Part shown: in pieces, positions 1,429 through 19,494 of the stretch
Numbering within the stretch: the first letter of the stretch is position 1
Layout: each line of letters opens with the position of its first letter
Virus record (IMG/VR): IMGVR_UViG_3300006123_000043
Location: 1-28,888 of that record
Length of the DNA: 28,888 bases
Direction: 5' to 3' (one strand)
From: a virus
Lineage: Duplodnaviria; Caudoviricetes
Translations under genes and position numbers: made by a program
Notes under the pieces: model-generated
What the model was told of the DNA's origin: nothing
Databases searched by the model: none
What the model saw: the letters and a program-made list of their open reading frames with translations, nothing else

Positions 1429-1457
1429 TTGCCATAGGCGCCTATATAGTATACAAT
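1429..1457 (+). promoter_or_regulatory. Sigma70-type promoter upstream of the three tRNA-Gly genes
   Basis: TTGCCA-N17-TACAAT, 10 nt before tRNA-Gly(GCC). Confidence 0.7.
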
Positions 1458-1628: not shown

Positions 1629-1695
1629 GCGGTCTGTCTAGGACAGGTTAGAGTTCCCCTCTAATAGTTCGGTGCAATTCCGAAGGACCGCTCCA
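1629..1695 (+). tRNA. Atypical 67-nt tRNA-Gly(UCC)-like RNA
   Basis: Acceptor GCGGTCT/GGACCGC + U73 + CCA; anticodon arm TTAGA-GTTCCCC-TCTAA; T-arm TTCGG-TGCAATT-CCGAA; D-arm reduced to GTC-TAG-GAC. Confidence 0.8.
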
Positions 1696-9657: not shown

Positions 9658-10978
9658 AGACTATTTACGCAAGGTTCTCCCCTTCATTAAAGATGAATAC
9701 TTCACCGACAAAACTGAAAGGATGTTATTCACCGAAATCTCTGAATTTGTTTCGAGATATAACACTACACCAACGATTGAAGCAATTGGATTGGCCGTCA
9801 AAGAAAGGCGAAATCTTTCAGATGACGAAGTGGAAAAGTCCGAATCTTATTTACAAGAGATTGCATTGGCTAAGGGAGAAGAATCCAAGATTCAATGGCT
9901 TATTGAAAAGTCGGAAGCCTTTTGTCAAGAGAGGGCAATCTACAATGCAGTACTGGGCTCTATTAGCATTTTGGACGGTAAGGATAAAACCCACGATAAG
10001 GGTCAGATTCCCAAGATATTATCGGACGCTTTGGCGGTAACATTCGATAGTTCTGTTGGCCATGATTACTTAGAAAATAGTGATGAACGATATGAATTCT
10101 ACCACAGACATGAAGAAAGAATTCCTTTTGACTTGGACTTCTTTAACAAGATTACAAAAGGTGGTCTTCCTTCCAAAACTCTTAATATCGCTCTTGCTGG
10201 TACCGGTGTTGGTAAGTCCCTTTTTATGTGTCATTGTGCCGCTGGAGCTATGTCGTTGGGTAGAAATGTTCTTTACATCACTATGGAAATGGCTGAAGAA
10301 CGTATTGCGGAAAGAATAGATGCGAACCTATTAAATGTGACCGTTGATGATTTGAATTCTTTACCAAAAGATATGTATGACAAGAAGATTGCCAAGATGA
10401 AAGAGAAGACAACTGGCAAATTGATTATCAAAGAATATCCAACTGCCTCGGCTTCTGCAACTCACTTTAGGACATTATTAAATGAGCTCAATCTCAAAAG
10501 GTCGTTTACACCTGATATTATTTTCATTGACTATCTCAATATTTGCTGTAGTTCTCGTATCAAGGCCGGAGCCAATGTCAACTCCTACACCTACGTCAAA
10601 TCCATTGCAGAAGAATTGCGAGGTCTTGCCGTTGAATTCGGAGTACCAATTGTTTCTGCTACACAAACAACACGGTCAGGATATGGTAGTTCAGATCCAG
10701 GACTCGAAGACACGAGTGAGTCTTTTGGTTTGCCAGCTACAGCCGACTTGATGTTTGCTTTGATTACAAGTGAAGAACTAGAAGAACTTGGCCAACTGAT
10801 GGTCAAACAATTGAAGAATAGATATTCTGATCCAACCACCCATAAAAGATTCGTTATCGGTATTGACCGTGCAAAAATGAGACTTTATGATGTTGAACAA
10901 ACAGGACAAGATGGACTAGCCGATGCAGGCCAACCTTCACAGAAACCTAAAAAGAATTTTGATGGATTTAAAGTATGA
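9614..10978 (+). CDS. 41: Replicative DnaB-like helicase (T4 gp41-like)
   Basis: LAGTGVGKSL Walker A, YITMEMAEE, IFIDYLNI, SATQTTR, SESFGLPATAD, QLKNRY; GAGGA RBS. Confidence 0.97.
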   Translation: MKLEQTILKNLIYNEDYLRKVLPFIKDEYFTDKTERMLFTEISEFVSRYNTTPTIEAIGLAVKERRNLSDDEVEKSESYLQEIALAKGEESKIQWLIEKSEAFCQERAIYNAVLGSISILDGKDKTHDKGQIPKILSDALAVTFDSSVGHDYLENSDERYEFYHRHEERIPFDLDFFNKITKGGLPSKTLNIALAGTGVGKSLFMCHCAAGAMSLGRNVLYITMEMAEERIAERIDANLLNVTVDDLNSLPKDMYDKKIAKMKEKTTGKLIIKEYPTASASATHFRTLLNELNLKRSFTPDIIFIDYLNICCSSRIKAGANVNSYTYVKSIAEELRGLAVEFGVPIVSATQTTRSGYGSSDPGLEDTSESFGLPATADLMFALITSEELEELGQLMVKQLKNRYSDPTTHKRFVIGIDRAKMRLYDVEQTGQDGLADAGQPSQKPKKNFDGFKV

Positions 10979-12084
10979 AACTAACTAGAGAAGAAGCACT
11001 TTATTGTGCTAATGCCTTCCATGAATATTTTGCCGATATCGGTGATATTGAAGAATATATGAGAGAGGAGAAGTTGAAAGCAGTCAAAGATATTCCTTTT
11101 TCATTGTTTCCTCCCGAAGATGATTTATTCTCCGATTTCTCTATGCACCCAAATGATATGGACATTGAAGTTTGTGAGATACCTAATGATACCTGGGAAA
11201 CTTTGTTAGCCATAACATCATCACACGTTAACAAATCTCCTGTTGGTAAGAATATTCAATTGGCTGTTAGAGAAAAGAATACTCAAAAGATTCTAGGATT
11301 CATCCGTCTCGGTTCACCAGTAATCTATATGAAACCAAGAAACGAATTGCTTGGACAGGTTTGGATTCAGAATCCTGATACGGCCAAACGATTCAATGAA
11401 TCTACTATAATGGGTTTTGTTATTGTACCGGCACAACCGTTTGGTTTTAATTATCTTGGTGGTAAATTGCTTTCTGGTATTTGTACTTCACATACAGTCC
11501 GTGAAATTGTCAATAAGAAATATGGTGCCAATATTTGTTTATTTGAAACCACCAGTTTATATGGTACGGCTAAGACCGTATCTCAATATGATGGTATGAA
11601 ACCATTTATTCGTTTCAGAGGTCTAACAGAATCGGATATGGTGCCAATGATGCACGGTGAAAGATATAATACTCTGAAAGATTATGTTGAAAGCCGAGTT
11701 GGTGATTTGTTACAAGGTGATACATCCACAACCAGTAGAAAACTAAGGTCTTTTACTAAGATTATTGCTATGACTAAAGCCGCTTTGAAAGGTACCAAAG
11801 AAGGTGATGATTTTAACACTACAATTGAAAATGCTAAAAACTTGACCGAGAAGAAAAGATATTACACATCCGATTATGGTTATAGTAACATGGTTGATTA
11901 CATGGCCTGTAAGACCGATAAACTAATACCAGGTGAGAACTATGAAAAGCATGAACTAGAAAACATTATCAAATGGTGGAAGAACAAGGCAATAAATAGA
12001 TACGAAACCCTTAAGACAGAGGGTAGACTAAGAACCGAACTAGAAGTTTGGACATCAGGTAAAGAAATACAAATCATTAGGTAA
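10975..12084 (+). CDS. DUF4338 (DruA-like)/Mom-like GNAT-fold protein, putative DNA-modifying enzyme
   Basis: ILGFIRLGSP, VPAQPFGFNYLGGKLL, FETTSLYG, SQYDG...GLT resemble DUF4338 motifs as recalled; ATGA-coupled to gp41. Confidence 0.65.
   Translation: MKLTREEALYCANAFHEYFADIGDIEEYMREEKLKAVKDIPFSLFPPEDDLFSDFSMHPNDMDIEVCEIPNDTWETLLAITSSHVNKSPVGKNIQLAVREKNTQKILGFIRLGSPVIYMKPRNELLGQVWIQNPDTAKRFNESTIMGFVIVPAQPFGFNYLGGKLLSGICTSHTVREIVNKKYGANICLFETTSLYGTAKTVSQYDGMKPFIRFRGLTESDMVPMMHGERYNTLKDYVESRVGDLLQGDTSTTSRKLRSFTKIIAMTKAALKGTKEGDDFNTTIENAKNLTEKKRYYTSDYGYSNMVDYMACKTDKLIPGENYEKHELENIIKWWKNKAINRYETLKTEGRLRTELEVWTSGKEIQIIR
11992..11998 (+). promoter_or_regulatory. Possible late promoter ATAAATA upstream of the nuclease gene
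   Basis: TAAATA core ~90 nt before ATG 12087; could be chance in AT-rich DNA. Confidence 0.35.
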
Positions 12085-13105: not shown

Positions 13106-13816
13106 ATGAGCGCAACGGTGATTATACCAACGACTGGTGCCAGTACGTTGAGAGATGCTATTGAATCTGTATTAAAACAATCATATAAAGATACCACTTG
13201 TTATGTGGTTTGTGATGGTGAGGAATATAGAAGCAAAGTTAAATTAATCTTAGATGATTATCCTGAAGTAAAAGATTGTTACCTACCAATCAATGTTGGT
13301 GCCAAAGGTTTCTATGGCCATAGAGTATATGCAGCCTTCACACATCTAGTGAACACCGATTATGTGCTATATCTTGACCAGGACAACTGGTTTTACGATA
13401 AACACGTTGAGTACTGTGTAGACACCATTCAGCGTAGAGACTTAGATTGGTGTTATTCCTTAAGACAAATACATGACAAATATGGCGCCTTTCAAACCTT
13501 TGATGATTGTGAATCTTTAGGTAAATGGCAAACATACCATGGAATTAACCACATAGATACAAATTGTTATTGCCTTAAGACTAAAACTGCGATACAATTA
13601 GCACAAGTGTGGCATGGAGGTTGGGGACAAGACAGAGTATTCTTAGGTGCAATATCTCAATACTTCCCAAAATTTGATTGTTCAAATGAATATAGTGTTC
13701 ATTACCGCCTTGATGGCAACAAAGGTTCAGTAACAAAAGAATTCTTTGAACACGGTAATGAAGTGATGTTTAAAAAATATAATGGAGTTTACCCATGGAG
13801 AAAAAAGACCTTGTAA
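13106..13816 (+). CDS. Glycosyltransferase family 2 (GT-A)
   Basis: ATVIIPT, AIESVLKQSY, VVCDG, YLDQDN (DxD). Confidence 0.9.
   Translation: MSATVIIPTTGASTLRDAIESVLKQSYKDTTCYVVCDGEEYRSKVKLILDDYPEVKDCYLPINVGAKGFYGHRVYAAFTHLVNTDYVLYLDQDNWFYDKHVEYCVDTIQRRDLDWCYSLRQIHDKYGAFQTFDDCESLGKWQTYHGINHIDTNCYCLKTKTAIQLAQVWHGGWGQDRVFLGAISQYFPKFDCSNEYSVHYRLDGNKGSVTKEFFEHGNEVMFKKYNGVYPWRKKTL
13570..13598 (+). promoter_or_regulatory. Possible internal sigma70-type promoter
   Basis: TTGCCT-N17-TACAAT inside the GT2 gene. Confidence 0.35.
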
Positions 13817-14667
13817 TAGGCGGCTGTACGAACTACGGCATCAATGAATTAAAACCTTGGGTACTTTCAGTCAATGAATGTATGCCTGAGGCAGACAAGG
13901 TGATGTGTGTTGGTAATGCCACACAAGAAACAAGAGACTGGTTGGTTGCAAACAATTTTAGGATTGTTGATATGCCACAGGCTCAAATTCCAATCCACGT
14001 ATTAAGATTCCTATCAATCTATAATTTCCTAAAAGATAATTGGGAAGATTATCGTTATGTGGTAACTACAGACGTAAAAGATGTATTCTTCCAGTATTCA
14101 CCATTTACATGGATGGAAAACCAATTCATCGGTAATACATTTATGTCCAGTCATAAATTAGTTTGTGGATCGGAAGGTTTGAAATACAAAGATGAACCTT
14201 GGGGTAATGAAAACTTAATGCAAGCTTATGGTCCATATGTACATGAGTTGTTTAAGGATAAAGAAATATATAATGTTGGTGTTCTTGGTGGAAGTGCTGA
14301 GTATGTAAAAGACTTAGTGTTCAACATTTTCACCAATGCGATTAATAGACCAATTGCAATTTGTGACCAAGCAGTATTCAATGTACTAATCAATACACAA
14401 CCATATTTTGATGTGGTGTTCTTTGCATGGAATAGACACGCATGGGCTTGTCAAGCAGGTACAATGGTCGATCCATCTAAGATTGAACAATTCAGACCAA
14501 ACCTATTAGAAGATGAACCTATATTTGATAATGGTGTTGTATGGACTGCTGACCGTGAAATGTATTGTATTGTACACCAATATGACCGTGTACCGGAATG
14601 GAAGAAGTTCGTTGAAGAAAAATATGGCCAACGAAAATCTGATGAATATATTACTATAAGGACTTAA
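13795..14667 (+). CDS. GT-A fold nucleotide-sugar transferase-like protein
   Basis: TTDVKDVFFQ, YNVGVLGG, DQAVFN, IVHQYDR. Confidence 0.7.
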   Translation: MEKKDLVIGGCTNYGINELKPWVLSVNECMPEADKVMCVGNATQETRDWLVANNFRIVDMPQAQIPIHVLRFLSIYNFLKDNWEDYRYVVTTDVKDVFFQYSPFTWMENQFIGNTFMSSHKLVCGSEGLKYKDEPWGNENLMQAYGPYVHELFKDKEIYNVGVLGGSAEYVKDLVFNIFTNAINRPIAICDQAVFNVLINTQPYFDVVFFAWNRHAWACQAGTMVDPSKIEQFRPNLLEDEPIFDNGVVWTADREMYCIVHQYDRVPEWKKFVEEKYGQRKSDEYITIRT

Positions 14668-15237
14668 ATGAAAACCCTAGTTGAAATTATTGATGAATTG
14701 GCTTTAGACAATAGAACCAACCTGACACATGGAACAGATAAAGAAGTACATAAGTATTGTAGCACATTCTATGATAAAGAATTTGAAAAGTATAGAGACG
14801 AACCAATTAAACTATTAGAAATTGGTTTATTCCGTGGAGGTTCTTTAATCTTATGGGAGAACTATTTTACCCATGAACAAACCGAAATTGTTGGTGTTGA
14901 TGTTACAAACTTTGGTGCTATGCAAATTGCAGAACAACTTAAGAGAACCAAAGTTATTATCAATGATGCTTACTCGGTCAACTTTGCCAATTTCTTGTCG
15001 AAGTTTGATATTATGATTGATGATGGTCCACATAGTGAAGAAAGTCAAATGAAATTCTTGGAGATTTATATACCAAGATTGAATGATGGTGGTGTAATGG
15101 TGATTGAAGATATCCAAGACATTGCTTCAACAGAAAAATTCAAAACCCTTGTTCCAGAAGGTTATACATATGAGATAGTTGATACGAGACACTTAGTTGA
15201 GTATCCTGATAATGTAATGTTTATAGTGAGAAAGTAA
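14668..15237 (+). CDS. Class I SAM-dependent methyltransferase (sugar O-methyltransferase-like)
   Basis: GTDK...H, LLEIGLFRGGS, FDIMIDDGPH, GGVMVIEDI. Confidence 0.85.
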   Translation: MKTLVEIIDELALDNRTNLTHGTDKEVHKYCSTFYDKEFEKYRDEPIKLLEIGLFRGGSLILWENYFTHEQTEIVGVDVTNFGAMQIAEQLKRTKVIINDAYSVNFANFLSKFDIMIDDGPHSEESQMKFLEIYIPRLNDGGVMVIEDIQDIASTEKFKTLVPEGYTYEIVDTRHLVEYPDNVMFIVRK

Positions 15238-15950
15238 TGAGTTTAGGATTTATACATTCAGCCTCAAATCAATTGAGGTCTGCTGAGTTTGTTATGCAGA
15301 ATGTCCGTCAACATTATCCGGACAGTAACTATATTGTTTTGGTGGACAAGGGTGCCGATTACTTACCTTTGGCAACCAAATACAATACAGAGATTCTATA
15401 TTCTCAATTGCAGAATGGTTATCCCGTTCAACCATACGGTTATCAAAAAGCACAAATATTAGAATTCTTAAAGAGAATGTATATTGGTTGCCTGAGATGC
15501 ACCGAAGAATATGTGATGATGATTGAAGAAGATAATGTGATATTAAAACCAATCACTATACCCGTAGGAACTATTGTGATGGGTTACAACACAATAGATG
15601 GTAATGACTACCCCCAAGAATTTGTAGACCTACTTGAATACTGGACTGGTAAAGAACCTAATTTTAAAAAGTATGGTTCGTGTGGCGGCACAATATTCCA
15701 TAGAGCAACTTTTATTGATGAATATTTTGCTATGGTTTATTTTGTAGAAACAAAATTAGACGAGATATTCAAATATTATCCTACAGCCGGTTGGATTGAT
15801 TGTTTTATGACATATCTATTCCAAGCAATGGGATACGATTATACACCAAATCCAAAATTATTTAACATACATCCCCGCCAGATGTTTGACCTAAGTAAAG
15901 TACCTGCTGATGCAGAATATGTAAACAACTTTAAGAATTATTATGATTGA
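15237..15950 (+). CDS. Putative glycosyltransferase (GT-A-like)
   Basis: IVLVDKG, YVMMIEEDN, CGGTIF; located inside the GT cassette. Confidence 0.55.
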   Translation: MSLGFIHSASNQLRSAEFVMQNVRQHYPDSNYIVLVDKGADYLPLATKYNTEILYSQLQNGYPVQPYGYQKAQILEFLKRMYIGCLRCTEEYVMMIEEDNVILKPITIPVGTIVMGYNTIDGNDYPQEFVDLLEYWTGKEPNFKKYGSCGGTIFHRATFIDEYFAMVYFVETKLDEIFKYYPTAGWIDCFMTYLFQAMGYDYTPNPKLFNIHPRQMFDLSKVPADAEYVNNFKNYYD

Positions 15951-16572
15951 AAATTACGAACGAATAAGAGATGGCCATTGGCACCAGATTGAATTGACTG
16001 GTGACATGATGAAATATGATGAGAAGTATATGCAATATTATACTAAGATGGATGATTCAATGTCCAAACTTAGATATAATATATTGTCAGACCATGTTGG
16101 TCCATTTAAATCTGTTTTAGATGTTGGTTACGGTGATGCCAACTTTTTACAGTATTGTTTTAATCGTTTTGTGACCTGTTATGGTAATGATATATCAAAT
16201 TATCCATTACCAGAAGGAATTAAATTTGTTGAAAGTCCTTCCGATGTTGAAGTTGATGTAATCACATTCTTTGATTCTTTAGAACATAGGCCTGAAGCTG
16301 ATTTGGTTCCTTTTCTAAAATCCCTAAAAACAAAACATATCGTGGTGTCATTACCTTGGTGTCATGGTGTTATGGGACCAGGTTATTTTGAGACATGGAA
16401 ACATCGTAAACCAAATGAACACTTCCATCATTTTGATTACATTGGTTTAGTCAATTTATTGGATGATGCTGGTTTCCAAACAATTCATGTAAGTAATGCT
16501 GAAGATGCAATTCGTAAACCAGTAAACTACTTACCGAATATTTTAACTGTGGTGGCAAAAAAATATGAGTGA
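15943..16572 (+). CDS. Class I SAM-dependent methyltransferase
   Basis: SVLDVGYGDANFL, DVITFFDSLEH, VSLP, EHFHHF. Confidence 0.85.
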   Translation: MIENYERIRDGHWHQIELTGDMMKYDEKYMQYYTKMDDSMSKLRYNILSDHVGPFKSVLDVGYGDANFLQYCFNRFVTCYGNDISNYPLPEGIKFVESPSDVEVDVITFFDSLEHRPEADLVPFLKSLKTKHIVVSLPWCHGVMGPGYFETWKHRKPNEHFHHFDYIGLVNLLDDAGFQTIHVSNAEDAIRKPVNYLPNILTVVAKKYE

Positions 16573-17368
16573 TATTACTATTGTAACGGCCTTCTATGAT
16601 ATTGGTCGTGGAGATTGGACACCAGATAAAGGTCTTCCACATTATCTCCAAAGAACTACCGATACATACTTTGAGAGATTTGGTCATATGGCTAAACTTG
16701 ATAATGATATGGTAGTCTTTACTTCTCCCGATTTAGTTGACCGAGTGAAGTCCCTACGAGGAGATAAACCAACAAAAGTTATAGCAAAAGAATTTTCATC
16801 ATTGACTCCGAATTTGAGAGAAAAAATTATGGGAGTTCAACTGCTGTCCAAGTATCAACAGATGATTAATCCGTCTCAGGTTAAGAATCCTGAATACTGG
16901 AACGCTAATTATGTGATGGTGAATCTATTAAAATCGTCATTCATTACATTGGCAATTGCGGCTGGTGATATCAATACTGATTTGGTTGCCTGGTTAGACT
17001 TTGGTTATTGTAGAGATGAATCTACATTGAACGGTGTTACTCATTGGCAATATCCTTTTAGTGAAGATAAGATTCATGTATTCAGTATCAAAGATTTTAT
17101 CGAAGGTACATATATCAATGATATTATTGCTAATAATGATGTTCATATTACTGGTCCACATATTGTAGCACACAAATCATTATGGCCTAAATTAGAAAAA
17201 ATGGTTATGGCTCATACTAACCAACTATTGGAAAATGATTTGATTGATGATGACCAAACATTACTATTGATGTCAACATTAAGTAATCCTGAATTGTTTG
17301 AAATACACCCAGTATCAAAAGATGACTGGTTTATTATTTTTAAGGAATATAATGAATCTATATCTTAA
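16565..17368 (+). CDS. HtrL/YibB (WlaTC) family glycosyltransferase-like protein
   Basis: ITIVTAFYDIGRGDW, YFERF, AWLDFGYCR, IDDDQTLLL. Confidence 0.8.
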   Translation: MSDITIVTAFYDIGRGDWTPDKGLPHYLQRTTDTYFERFGHMAKLDNDMVVFTSPDLVDRVKSLRGDKPTKVIAKEFSSLTPNLREKIMGVQLLSKYQQMINPSQVKNPEYWNANYVMVNLLKSSFITLAIAAGDINTDLVAWLDFGYCRDESTLNGVTHWQYPFSEDKIHVFSIKDFIEGTYINDIIANNDVHITGPHIVAHKSLWPKLEKMVMAHTNQLLENDLIDDDQTLLLMSTLSNPELFEIHPVSKDDWFIIFKEYNESIS

Positions 17369-18083
17369 GTCTACCGCAAATCTTGGTGACTTTTTAAATG
17401 CTATGCCTGTATTGGCAGGTCTATCTACAGCTTATGGTGATGTTAGTCTGATTATCAGAAGTGAGATGAGAAAATTTAGAGGTATGAAAGAATTCTTATC
17501 ATACCAAGGCATATTCAAAGATGTTAATTTTGATGATGAGGTGTTCTTTAGTGGTGTAACCGAGATTAGTTCTTGGACTAGAGAAGACCAAAATGATCCT
17601 AATCGTCCAATCGAAACCTGTAGATACGAGAATTGGATGAAAGATAGGGGTTTCAATTTTGAAGTACAAGATGACTTTAAGATTCGTTATCCTGATTTGA
17701 ATAAAATTGTTGACCAAAACAAATATTATGTTGGCGATAGATGGGATGTTGGTAACATTGACACTAGACGAGCCACTAAAGTATTGTCACATATGAATGA
17801 CTGTATCTTTATTGACTATAGTAGAGACTTGTTGGAGAATTGTTACTTCATTGCCGAATCACCTAAGCCGTTCATCACCAATTTAACGGGTATATCCGTA
17901 TTAGGAGACTTGTTGAATAAGGAACAATGGATTGTTTGGAAGTCTGAAGATTGGAATCCAGAATTCAGAAATGGTAAAGATATTAATTGGGATAATGGTA
18001 AGAACATAGATTCTGTTTTTAAGAAACACTTCTATGGCAATAGAAAATCAAAACTGGTACATTCTGACGATTTACGACTATGA
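17352..18083 (+). CDS. GT-B/GT9 (heptosyltransferase)-like protein
   Basis: N-terminal NLGDFLNAMPVL, FITNLTGISVL; start set at ATG 17352 (AAGGA RBS). Confidence 0.55.
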   Translation: MNLYLKSTANLGDFLNAMPVLAGLSTAYGDVSLIIRSEMRKFRGMKEFLSYQGIFKDVNFDDEVFFSGVTEISSWTREDQNDPNRPIETCRYENWMKDRGFNFEVQDDFKIRYPDLNKIVDQNKYYVGDRWDVGNIDTRRATKVLSHMNDCIFIDYSRDLLENCYFIAESPKPFITNLTGISVLGDLLNKEQWIVWKSEDWNPEFRNGKDINWDNGKNIDSVFKKHFYGNRKSKLVHSDDLRL

Positions 18084-18799
18084 TACTTAATATTGTTAAA
18101 GGTTTATTTGGAGACACACTAAGAAATGGTGACTTGGTCGCTGTTGGTAATGTATTGGAATATTTGAGAATCAGAGATAAAAATCCTGAATTAAAATTCT
18201 ATATGAAGCCAGACACCTTAAGTGAAGCCAGTTATGTTCAACAATTCTTTTCTTGGTTGACAGAGAATACTGATTGGTTCTCACTTACTCCAGGCGATAA
18301 GTTTTTAGATTGGAAACATTGTAACGTCTGGGACTTTAGAGATATCTCCGGTGACTTGGTAAAGATAGAGAATTATAAACCAGTAGAAAAGAAAGTTGTT
18401 ATCTTTCCCGTATTAGATGCTCCATATAATGCTTGGCGTAATTGGCCACAGGAAGCATTTCAACAAATTGTCAATGAATATGGTGGTGAAAAATACAAAG
18501 ATTACCGTAAAATTATTTGTATAACACCTAATATTAAGATAACTGTTAATGGTTGGGAGATTTCTACCGACTTTATGACAAATATAGACCACATTCTTAC
18601 TGCTGACACATATGTTGGTGGTGATACTGGTACATCCCATTTTGCATGGGCATTGTATAGGTCTCCACCAAATCTGGTATACTGGTCATCAAGTAGAGGT
18701 CTAGTACATACTCTACCATTCTATGCCTTAAGAGGTAAAGGTCAAATAAACAGTTATTGGTTAAATTTTGAAGGTCCTTGGACTAAAATAGACGTATGA
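18080..18799 (+). CDS. GT-B/GT9-like protein
   Basis: RNGDLV, WRNWP, YVGGDTGTSHFA motifs typical of GT9. Confidence 0.65.
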   Translation: MILNIVKGLFGDTLRNGDLVAVGNVLEYLRIRDKNPELKFYMKPDTLSEASYVQQFFSWLTENTDWFSLTPGDKFLDWKHCNVWDFRDISGDLVKIENYKPVEKKVVIFPVLDAPYNAWRNWPQEAFQQIVNEYGGEKYKDYRKIICITPNIKITVNGWEISTDFMTNIDHILTADTYVGGDTGTSHFAWALYRSPPNLVYWSSSRGLVHTLPFYALRGKGQINSYWLNFEGPWTKIDV

Positions 18800-19494
18800 C
18801 CACATTCAAACATCGAGGTAAACTAGGTGATATTATCTGGTCTTTACCATTCATTAAGGATATGGGTGGAGGTAAACTTTACCTACAAATCGGTGAATAC
18901 CTAGATGAAGAAGGTTTACAGTTTCTTAGACCACTATTAGAATGTCAGCCATATATTACTGAGGTTGTAAAGTATAACGGAGAACCAGTTGATTACGACC
19001 TGGATCGTTTCCGTGAGATAATGAATACTTCACACCAAAGATCCTTGGCCGAGAGTTATTTTGTGGTTTTTGGTAGAGAATTGCCTAGGCATTTTCAATA
19101 TGAACCTTGGTTAACTGTACCAGATTTGCCACAATACAAATCTTCTGTTATAATCAGTAGGGTAGAAAGAGGTTTACATGGTAGTAGACCAATACACAAT
19201 CCTTTCTATGACGAATTGGTAAAAAGAAATTTACAACGAACTTCTTATTTTGTCGGTTTGGATACTGAGTGGAAAAGATTCATGGAAGAATACCAATGCA
19301 ATATTGCCTATAAACCAGTAAATAATGCGTTGGAAATGGCAACAATTATTAAACAGGCTGAACTTTGTGTGATGAATCAAAGTATGCCACTTGTAATTGC
19401 TGAAGGTCTAAAGAAGACAATACATTTGGAATTGAGGCACGATAATGCCAAACCGGATTGTATGTTTGACCGTCCGAACTTGTTCTATATCTAA
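18796..19494 (+). CDS. GT-B/GT9-like protein
   Basis: GKLGDIIWSLP, IIKQAELCVMNQSMPLVIAEGL. Confidence 0.6.
   Translation: MTTFKHRGKLGDIIWSLPFIKDMGGGKLYLQIGEYLDEEGLQFLRPLLECQPYITEVVKYNGEPVDYDLDRFREIMNTSHQRSLAESYFVVFGRELPRHFQYEPWLTVPDLPQYKSSVIISRVERGLHGSRPIHNPFYDELVKRNLQRTSYFVGLDTEWKRFMEEYQCNIAYKPVNNALEMATIIKQAELCVMNQSMPLVIAEGLKKTIHLELRHDNAKPDCMFDRPNLFYI

Follow-up and report, generated by a model that had tools for sequence, protein, structure and literature searches.

The window analysed here is a whole virus record of 28.9 kb (28,888 nucleotides) and is a piece of a T4-like phage whose DNA is also found in freshwater metagenomes. A cluster of tRNA genes occupies positions 180-1695, and genes for DNA polymerase, UvsX, a helicase and glycosyl- and methyltransferases are located further on. 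The cluster begins with tRNA-His (180-253), which has two mismatched acceptor-stem pairs, and it contains an HNH endonuclease gene (729-1172) in the interval from tRNA-Phe to tRNA-Leu. At its end are three glycine-type genes on the plus strand. Two are canonical and are recognized by both ARAGORN and Rfam, namely tRNA-Gly(GCC) at 1468-1541 and tRNA-Gly(UCC) at 1550-1623. The third is a 67-nucleotide tRNA-Gly-like RNA gene at 1629-1695 (the mini tRNA), which combines glycine identity with a 3-bp D hairpin, a TGC T-loop and an encoded CCA. A weak sigma-70-like promoter match (1429-1457, plus strand; 10/12 matches) is located upstream of this three-gene block, and the region holds 6 sigma-70-like sites, compared with 2.5 +/- 1.6 in shuffled sequences.

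Immediately 3' of the mini tRNA is a reading frame for a repetitive protein rich in Pro, Val and Glu (1768-2226), for which no family match was found. A phage-encoded D-Ala-D-Ala carboxypeptidase (PF00768; 2223-2966, minus strand) lies 0.5 kb from the mini tRNA. A 369-aa DruA/DUF4338-like protein, called A below, is encoded at 10975-12084 (plus strand) directly after the replicative helicase gene and 9.3 kb from the mini tRNA; related phages also carry a paralog of 420-450 aa, called B. A is followed by a series of genes for glycosyltransferases, methyltransferases and HtrL/YibB-like proteins (13106-19494), parts of which are retained in relatives that lack A.

Structure and authenticity of the 67-nucleotide element

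The acceptor stem has 7 bp, including G1-C72, C2-G71, G3-C70 and a U7-G66 wobble pair, and the 3' end is U73 followed by CCA. A D hairpin of 3 bp (GTC-TAG-GAC) starts at position 8, with both the U8/A9 linker and the GG absent. The anticodon arm pairs TTAGA with TCTAA around the loop GTTCCCC, which presents UCC followed by C37 and contains a possible G32-C38 pair. The variable region is 3 nucleotides, and the T-stem pairs U49-A65, U50-A64 and C51-G63 stand below the T-loop TGCAATT. The cloverleaf is the minimum-energy fold of the element (-23 kcal/mol, z -2.1), with 4 of 200 shuffled sequences equally stable, and in this fold the anticodon stem is lengthened to 7 bp, leaving a loop of 5 nucleotides. 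The first-pass annotation had named the glycine identity elements, the shrunken D-arm without a canonical loop, the GTGC T-loop, the pyrimidine at position 37, the stem extension by G32-C38 and the normal tRNA-Gly(UCC) 5 nucleotides upstream. All are present, and the predicted fold closes the anticodon stem further than had been proposed. Every bacterial GlyRS determinant in Table 1 of PMC9976931 (U73, G1-C72, C2-G71, G3-C70, C35 and C36) is carried by the element.

ARAGORN does not detect the element and neither does Rfam, the latter even at E values up to 10. It stands outside the canonical bacterial tRNA family (RF00005), with a sub-threshold score and without U8, the D-loop GG and a TTC T-loop. 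A loose pattern finds a single match in the window, which is the element, and none in 100 shuffled sequences. Class model R1, whose training set included the element itself, assigns it 75.4 bits, versus 39.1 and 34.1 bits for the two canonical tRNA-Gly genes. Among four freshwater runs whose contigs were compared over positions 1400-1800, three cover the element with no difference listed within 1629-1695 and the fourth has no cover there; two of the three covering runs differ from the window at four sites upstream. Thus, the element is not an assembly error, and it is both genuine and unique in the window.

A class of short tRNA-Gly-like RNAs

Judged by its sequence, the element is a member of a class of tRNA-Gly-like RNAs, 63-71 nucleotides long, that is widespread in phages; standard annotation overlooked this class of genes in this window. 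A search pattern that specified nothing but the ends and the GTGC loop, and imposed no pairing, matches at least 121 viral loci, and the total is estimated at about 470. Among the matches listed there are 128 matches representing 89 unique RNAs, with lengths of 66-70 nucleotides (53 RNAs), 72-76 nucleotides (33) or more (3). For seven stem pairs left unconstrained by the pattern, pairing is observed in 325 of 371 cells for the short forms listed (shuffle mean 175, maximum 201) and in 228 of 231 cells for the long forms listed (mean 120, maximum 139). The 5' start was picked by best acceptor pairing, which biases three of these seven pairs upward; the four T-stem pairs, which are free of this bias, form in 202 of 212 cells for the short forms. 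A MAFFT alignment of 55 short forms is 87.6% paired, slid controls falling to 39-50%, and it exhibits two-sided changes at 16 of 20 pairs in all four helices, although these 55 (of 101) were pre-filtered on stem pairing, which limits independent evidence to the D and anticodon helices. A check for covariation among homologs, as proposed in the first-pass annotation, therefore finds both relatives and covarying stems.

The smallest members of the class, at 63 nucleotides, combine a TTT T-loop with an anticodon loop of 4-5 nucleotides (L342:4755-4817 and other B loci), and they are located 26-62 nucleotides downstream of paralog B. At six loci (L014, L046, L050, L376, L390 and L404) two distinct short tRNA-Gly-like genes are arranged in tandem right after B.

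Features were compared across 295 unique glycine-type RNAs, comprising 152 canonical, 43 long atypical and 100 short representatives. The middle-loop CC, which no search had required, is present in all 98 short forms having the hairpin, while the base preceding CC is free and the anticodon loops vary from 4 to 8 nucleotides; C35 and C36 are among the GlyRS determinants (PMC9976931). Position 8 is G in 83/100 short forms and T in 148/152 canonical tRNAs. The G51-C63 pair is found in 3/100 short forms versus 106/152 canonical tRNAs, and the short class dodges it by several routes, although the canonical UCC tRNA of the window also carries C51-G63 and this pair fails to distinguish it from the mini tRNA. 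According to the available part of PMC7826273, the translating tRNA-Gly of Staphylococcus aureus use a combination for tight EF-Tu binding that includes G51-C63, and TGC T-loops are a mark of its non-translating tRNA-Gly, which avoid EF-Tu. The same part states that charged tRNA is mostly EF-Tu-bound in cells, and that in S. aureus a transferase that uses Gly-tRNA is inhibited by EF-Tu, an effect that is weaker with the non-translating tRNAs. The sequence pattern of the short class fits selection for charging without translation.

Genes associated with the short RNAs

Among the GTGC loci listed, 25 of 115 have a gene for Mom, A or B within 200 nucleotides, versus 3 of 126 GTTC controls. These 25 comprise 8 Mom, 4 A and 13 B genes, every one on the same strand as the RNA. 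The 115 loci are the 121 minus one duplicate and five that are poorly paired or longer than 76 nucleotides, and 41 of the 121 had flanks of 300 nucleotides only. Of the three control exceptions, two are canonical tRNA-Gly beside B, and the third is a 69-nucleotide form that overlaps a mom gene. With wide flanks, A, B or Mom is found at 34/80 GTGC loci versus 4/79 canonical controls, a count that favours the GTGC set because the profiles were built partly from GTGC-locus proteins. An adjacent partner is absent from 90 of the 115 GTGC loci listed, and Mom at E <= 0.001 was found in none of 29 partnerless contigs, which are mostly fragments. The linkage loci are related, and their counts are of non-independent events.

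Starting from the proteins removes the bias of the RNA pattern. Of 80 loci found through B, 7 were dropped for short flanks, and 52 of the remaining 73 have a form of 63-70 nucleotides within 400 nucleotides downstream, with 5 more at about 550 nucleotides. Of 80 loci found through Mom, 6 were dropped; a short form is located within 400 nucleotides at 20 of the 23 loci that are at least 58% identical to the L049 Mom, with 2 more at 487 nucleotides, and it is absent from 50 of 51 distant loci, where the single match looks false. The short-form detector gives no match in 263 kb of reversed sequence. The L049 Mom is a true homolog of Mu Mom (E 1.5e-60 to PDB 8bv8), and the partners at L049, L035 and L048 pass the PF25680 cut-off with E values from 9e-65 to 4e-30. 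Since pairwise identity among the Mom partners is mostly 21-38%, the link between the RNA and Mom spans distant lineages. Two copies next to Mom genes (L413 and L427) have the same anticodon loop, GTTCCCC, as the window element. Of 120 matches in cellular genomes, 7 are fully paired, and five of these are beside mom genes in sphingomonad genomes, one of the five on the opposite strand.

Several loci have unusual arrangements. A tandem pair of mom genes has an identical GTGC tRNA-Gly copy at each 5' end (L012:9899-11884). In contig G038, a short form (L057:5457-5525) lies just 3' of a frame faintly matching Mom (E 0.0015), possibly a broken mom gene, near an IS1595-type transposase. At L302, A and B flank a canonical tRNA-Gly.

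For the clade of the window itself, 20 contigs were chosen through UvsX or A, and 14 of them have A and/or B. A form of 65-70 nucleotides is present in 12 of these 14; the other two have no tRNA-Gly of any kind, and their A genes are near contig ends. The six contigs without A and B, each 22-50% complete, include three with no tRNA-Gly, two with canonical tRNA-Gly only and one (G011) in which A is missing from its usual slot and yet a 66-nucleotide form is kept, with A3-U70 replacing G3-C70. In G011 and the two canonical-only contigs the post-helicase slot is present and empty of A, and the usual B region is off the contig. All 10 contigs picked through B have A and the RNA. Ten control viruses that carry canonical tRNA-Gly lack both A and B, and no form of 63-70 nucleotides is detected in them by the model. 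The short form was found in none of five cultured phages having A and/or B. Given its absence from these five phages and from 50 of 51 distant Mom loci, the mini tRNA is optional. Among contigs G001-G036, most of the long ones contain both A and B, separated by about 16-30 kb, and the two paralogs may act together. In one contig two TGA stops interrupt A (G010:14962-15830), and B and a 66-nucleotide RNA are retained.

Protein A matches Pfam PF14236 (E 1.7e-7; 31.2 bits against a cut-off of 27) and phrog_19197, and its gene lies among replication genes here, as it does in cultured phages. Its predicted model (pLDDT 93.9) has strands and helices compatible with the alpha/beta core of GNATs. Foldseek gives nothing at E <= 0.001. 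The best match (E 0.014) is malonyl-CoA decarboxylase, whose core is GNAT-like, and the 40 matches listed are weak, nearly all of them to acetyltransferases, with the Mom structure 8bv8 not among them. By sequence and profile A matches neither PF25680 nor phrog_1384 nor 8bv8, a sequence search of the PDB was empty, comparisons of A with Mom profiles gave nothing significant, and no counterpart of the Mom-invariant ELxR motif was found in the A/B alignment. The predicted model thus resembles GNATs weakly and Mom not specifically, and A is probably a GNAT acyltransferase. Homologs of A are found in 31 phage records, one of which (49% identical) is annotated by its depositor as 'methylcarbamoylase mom', the basis not being stated. 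There are 6306 homologs at E <= 0.001, and the DruA/DUF4338 family is abundant in aquatic T4-like phages. DUF4338 has been termed a GNAT domain (PMC10853773).

Interpretation and comparison with known systems

The element is probably a non-ribosomal glycyl donor, and the sequence evidence supports the interpretation offered in the first-pass annotation, which had named no consumer. Its gene associations point to phage GNAT acyltransferases (Mom and DruA-like proteins) as consumers rather than to peptidoglycan synthesis, and in the window the likely consumer of the charged RNA is the predicted DruA-like protein A. Glycyl transfer by A is proposed because its RNA partner is shared with Mom. We assign a probability of roughly 0.58 to the reading that the mini tRNA feeds DNA modification by A and/or B. 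The mini tRNA would be transcribed and matured together with the adjoining tRNAs and charged by host GlyRS through G1-C72, C2-G71, G3-C70, U73, C35 and C36. The lost contacts between D-loop and T-loop, together with a closed anticodon loop and a weak T-stem, would then keep the glycylated RNA free of EF-Tu and off the ribosome. Its glycine would be passed to A and/or to paralog B, which in relatives is encoded upstream of the tRNA cluster, a region outside this contig. The acceptor is likely a DNA base, as for Mu Mom, and its modification would give protection against host nucleases. Use of the charged RNA at replication would solve the problem of Gly-tRNA supply for a DNA-modifying GNAT. The mini tRNA would boost this supply without being essential, a role that fits its patchy spread.

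The same donor might instead serve A and B in glycylating a protein, an RNA or a small molecule, or serve some other enzyme. This is possible, though rather unlikely: the generic resemblance of A to GNATs, with no significant similarity to Mom, is in its favour, as is the suggestion that DUF4338 GNATs may act on proteins (PMC10853773), but true Mom genes abut the same RNA class and A is located among replication genes. Quite improbable is a decoy or mimic that absorbs defences directed at tRNA-Gly, such as anticodon nucleases or Gly-tRNA-acetylating toxins, or a buffer of the Gly-tRNA pool, with the linkage reflecting a shared counter-defence role. The 90 loci listed without an adjacent enzyme would suit such a role, as would the position after canonical tRNA-Gly within the tRNA cluster in the clade of the window, and phage tRNAs have already been described as counter-defence (PMC10264068, in its available part). 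There would be no reason, however, for a decoy to abut or overlap, in the same orientation, genes of three different GNAT families.

More doubtful still is an odd yet functional translational tRNA-Gly. The cloverleaf, UCC anticodon and CCA are in place, and 13 window genes use GGA for 67 of their 382 Gly codons; set against this are the canonical UCC tRNA 5 nucleotides upstream, the variable loops of relatives with their free base before CC, and the class-wide loss of U8 and G51-C63. A functionless decayed duplicate or integration remnant is very improbable. One would be expected to lie beside a canonical tRNA-Gly and to score below the Rfam thresholds, as this element does, but compensatory changes in all four helices, the invariant CC and the presence of the RNA in 12 of 14 relatives with A or B agree with the first-pass annotation in arguing against decay. 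A glycine donor for cell-wall cross-bridges, in the staphylococcal style, is scarcely credible despite the D-Ala-D-Ala carboxypeptidase gene nearby and a TGC T-loop and 5-nucleotide anticodon loop resembling those in the available part of PMC7826273, since the carboxypeptidase matches none of 80 wide-flank GTGC loci and no Fem-type family is present among 28 window proteins scanned in Pfam.

Both halves of the preferred reading, donation of glycine by a non-ribosomal tRNA and modification of DNA by an enzyme of the Mom type, have precedents, and a literature search found no paper that describes a mini tRNA-Gly or joins the two. According to the available part of PMC13219725, Mu Mom transfers glycine from Gly-tRNA-Gly to adenine N6, with 6-NcmdA as product, and all three E. 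coli tRNA-Gly isoacceptors serve it. This chemistry requires charged tRNA-Gly, and true homologs of Mu Mom (PF25680, 8bv8) abut relatives of the phage RNA. The activity of Mu Mom was demonstrated on host isoacceptors, whereas the window has no Mom and a DruA-like protein instead; no mention of a phage-encoded or non-proteinogenic donor was found in the available main text. DruA-like proteins have been noted in cyanophages, and the available part of 10.1101/2025.08.05.668817 gives neither function nor co-substrate and reports no tRNA link, whereas RNA neighbours are found here. Protein A shares the family match to DruA/DUF4338 (PF14236), and its phage relatives carry two paralogs.

The staphylococcal tRNA-Gly NP1-3, as described in the available part of PMC7826273, share with the phage RNA the retained glycine identity, TGC in place of TTC, a 5-nucleotide anticodon loop, the lack of G51-C63 and a normal tRNA-Gly alongside. 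The first-pass annotation had drawn this parallel, and it stands for the T-loop and the anticodon loop; loss of the D-loop GG and a pyrimidine at position 37 were not found in that part as NP features. The NP T-stem (A49-U65, U50-A64, A51-U63) is also not matched by that of the window element. The NP lineage is said there to be confined to staphylococci, and its partners are Fem transferases, whereas the phage RNA is phage-encoded, 63-71 nucleotides long, has a D hairpin of 3-4 bp starting at position 8 and has Mom and DruA-like partners.

It is conceivable, at somewhat less than even odds, that private mini tRNA-Gly, proof against the ribosome, have arisen repeatedly in phages as dedicated cofactors of DNA aminoacylation and that DruA/DUF4338 proteins are a second tRNA-dependent class of DNA-modifying enzymes. 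If so, an undescribed glycine-derived base is predicted in such phages, the DruA of Druantia gains a biochemical role, and a direct test is offered for the large DruA-like family. The same view would explain how a Mom-type enzyme obtains Gly-tRNA that is normally sequestered by EF-Tu, and it would carry the principle of dedicated non-ribosomal tRNAs beyond the staphylococcal cell wall, into viruses and the chemistry of DNA.
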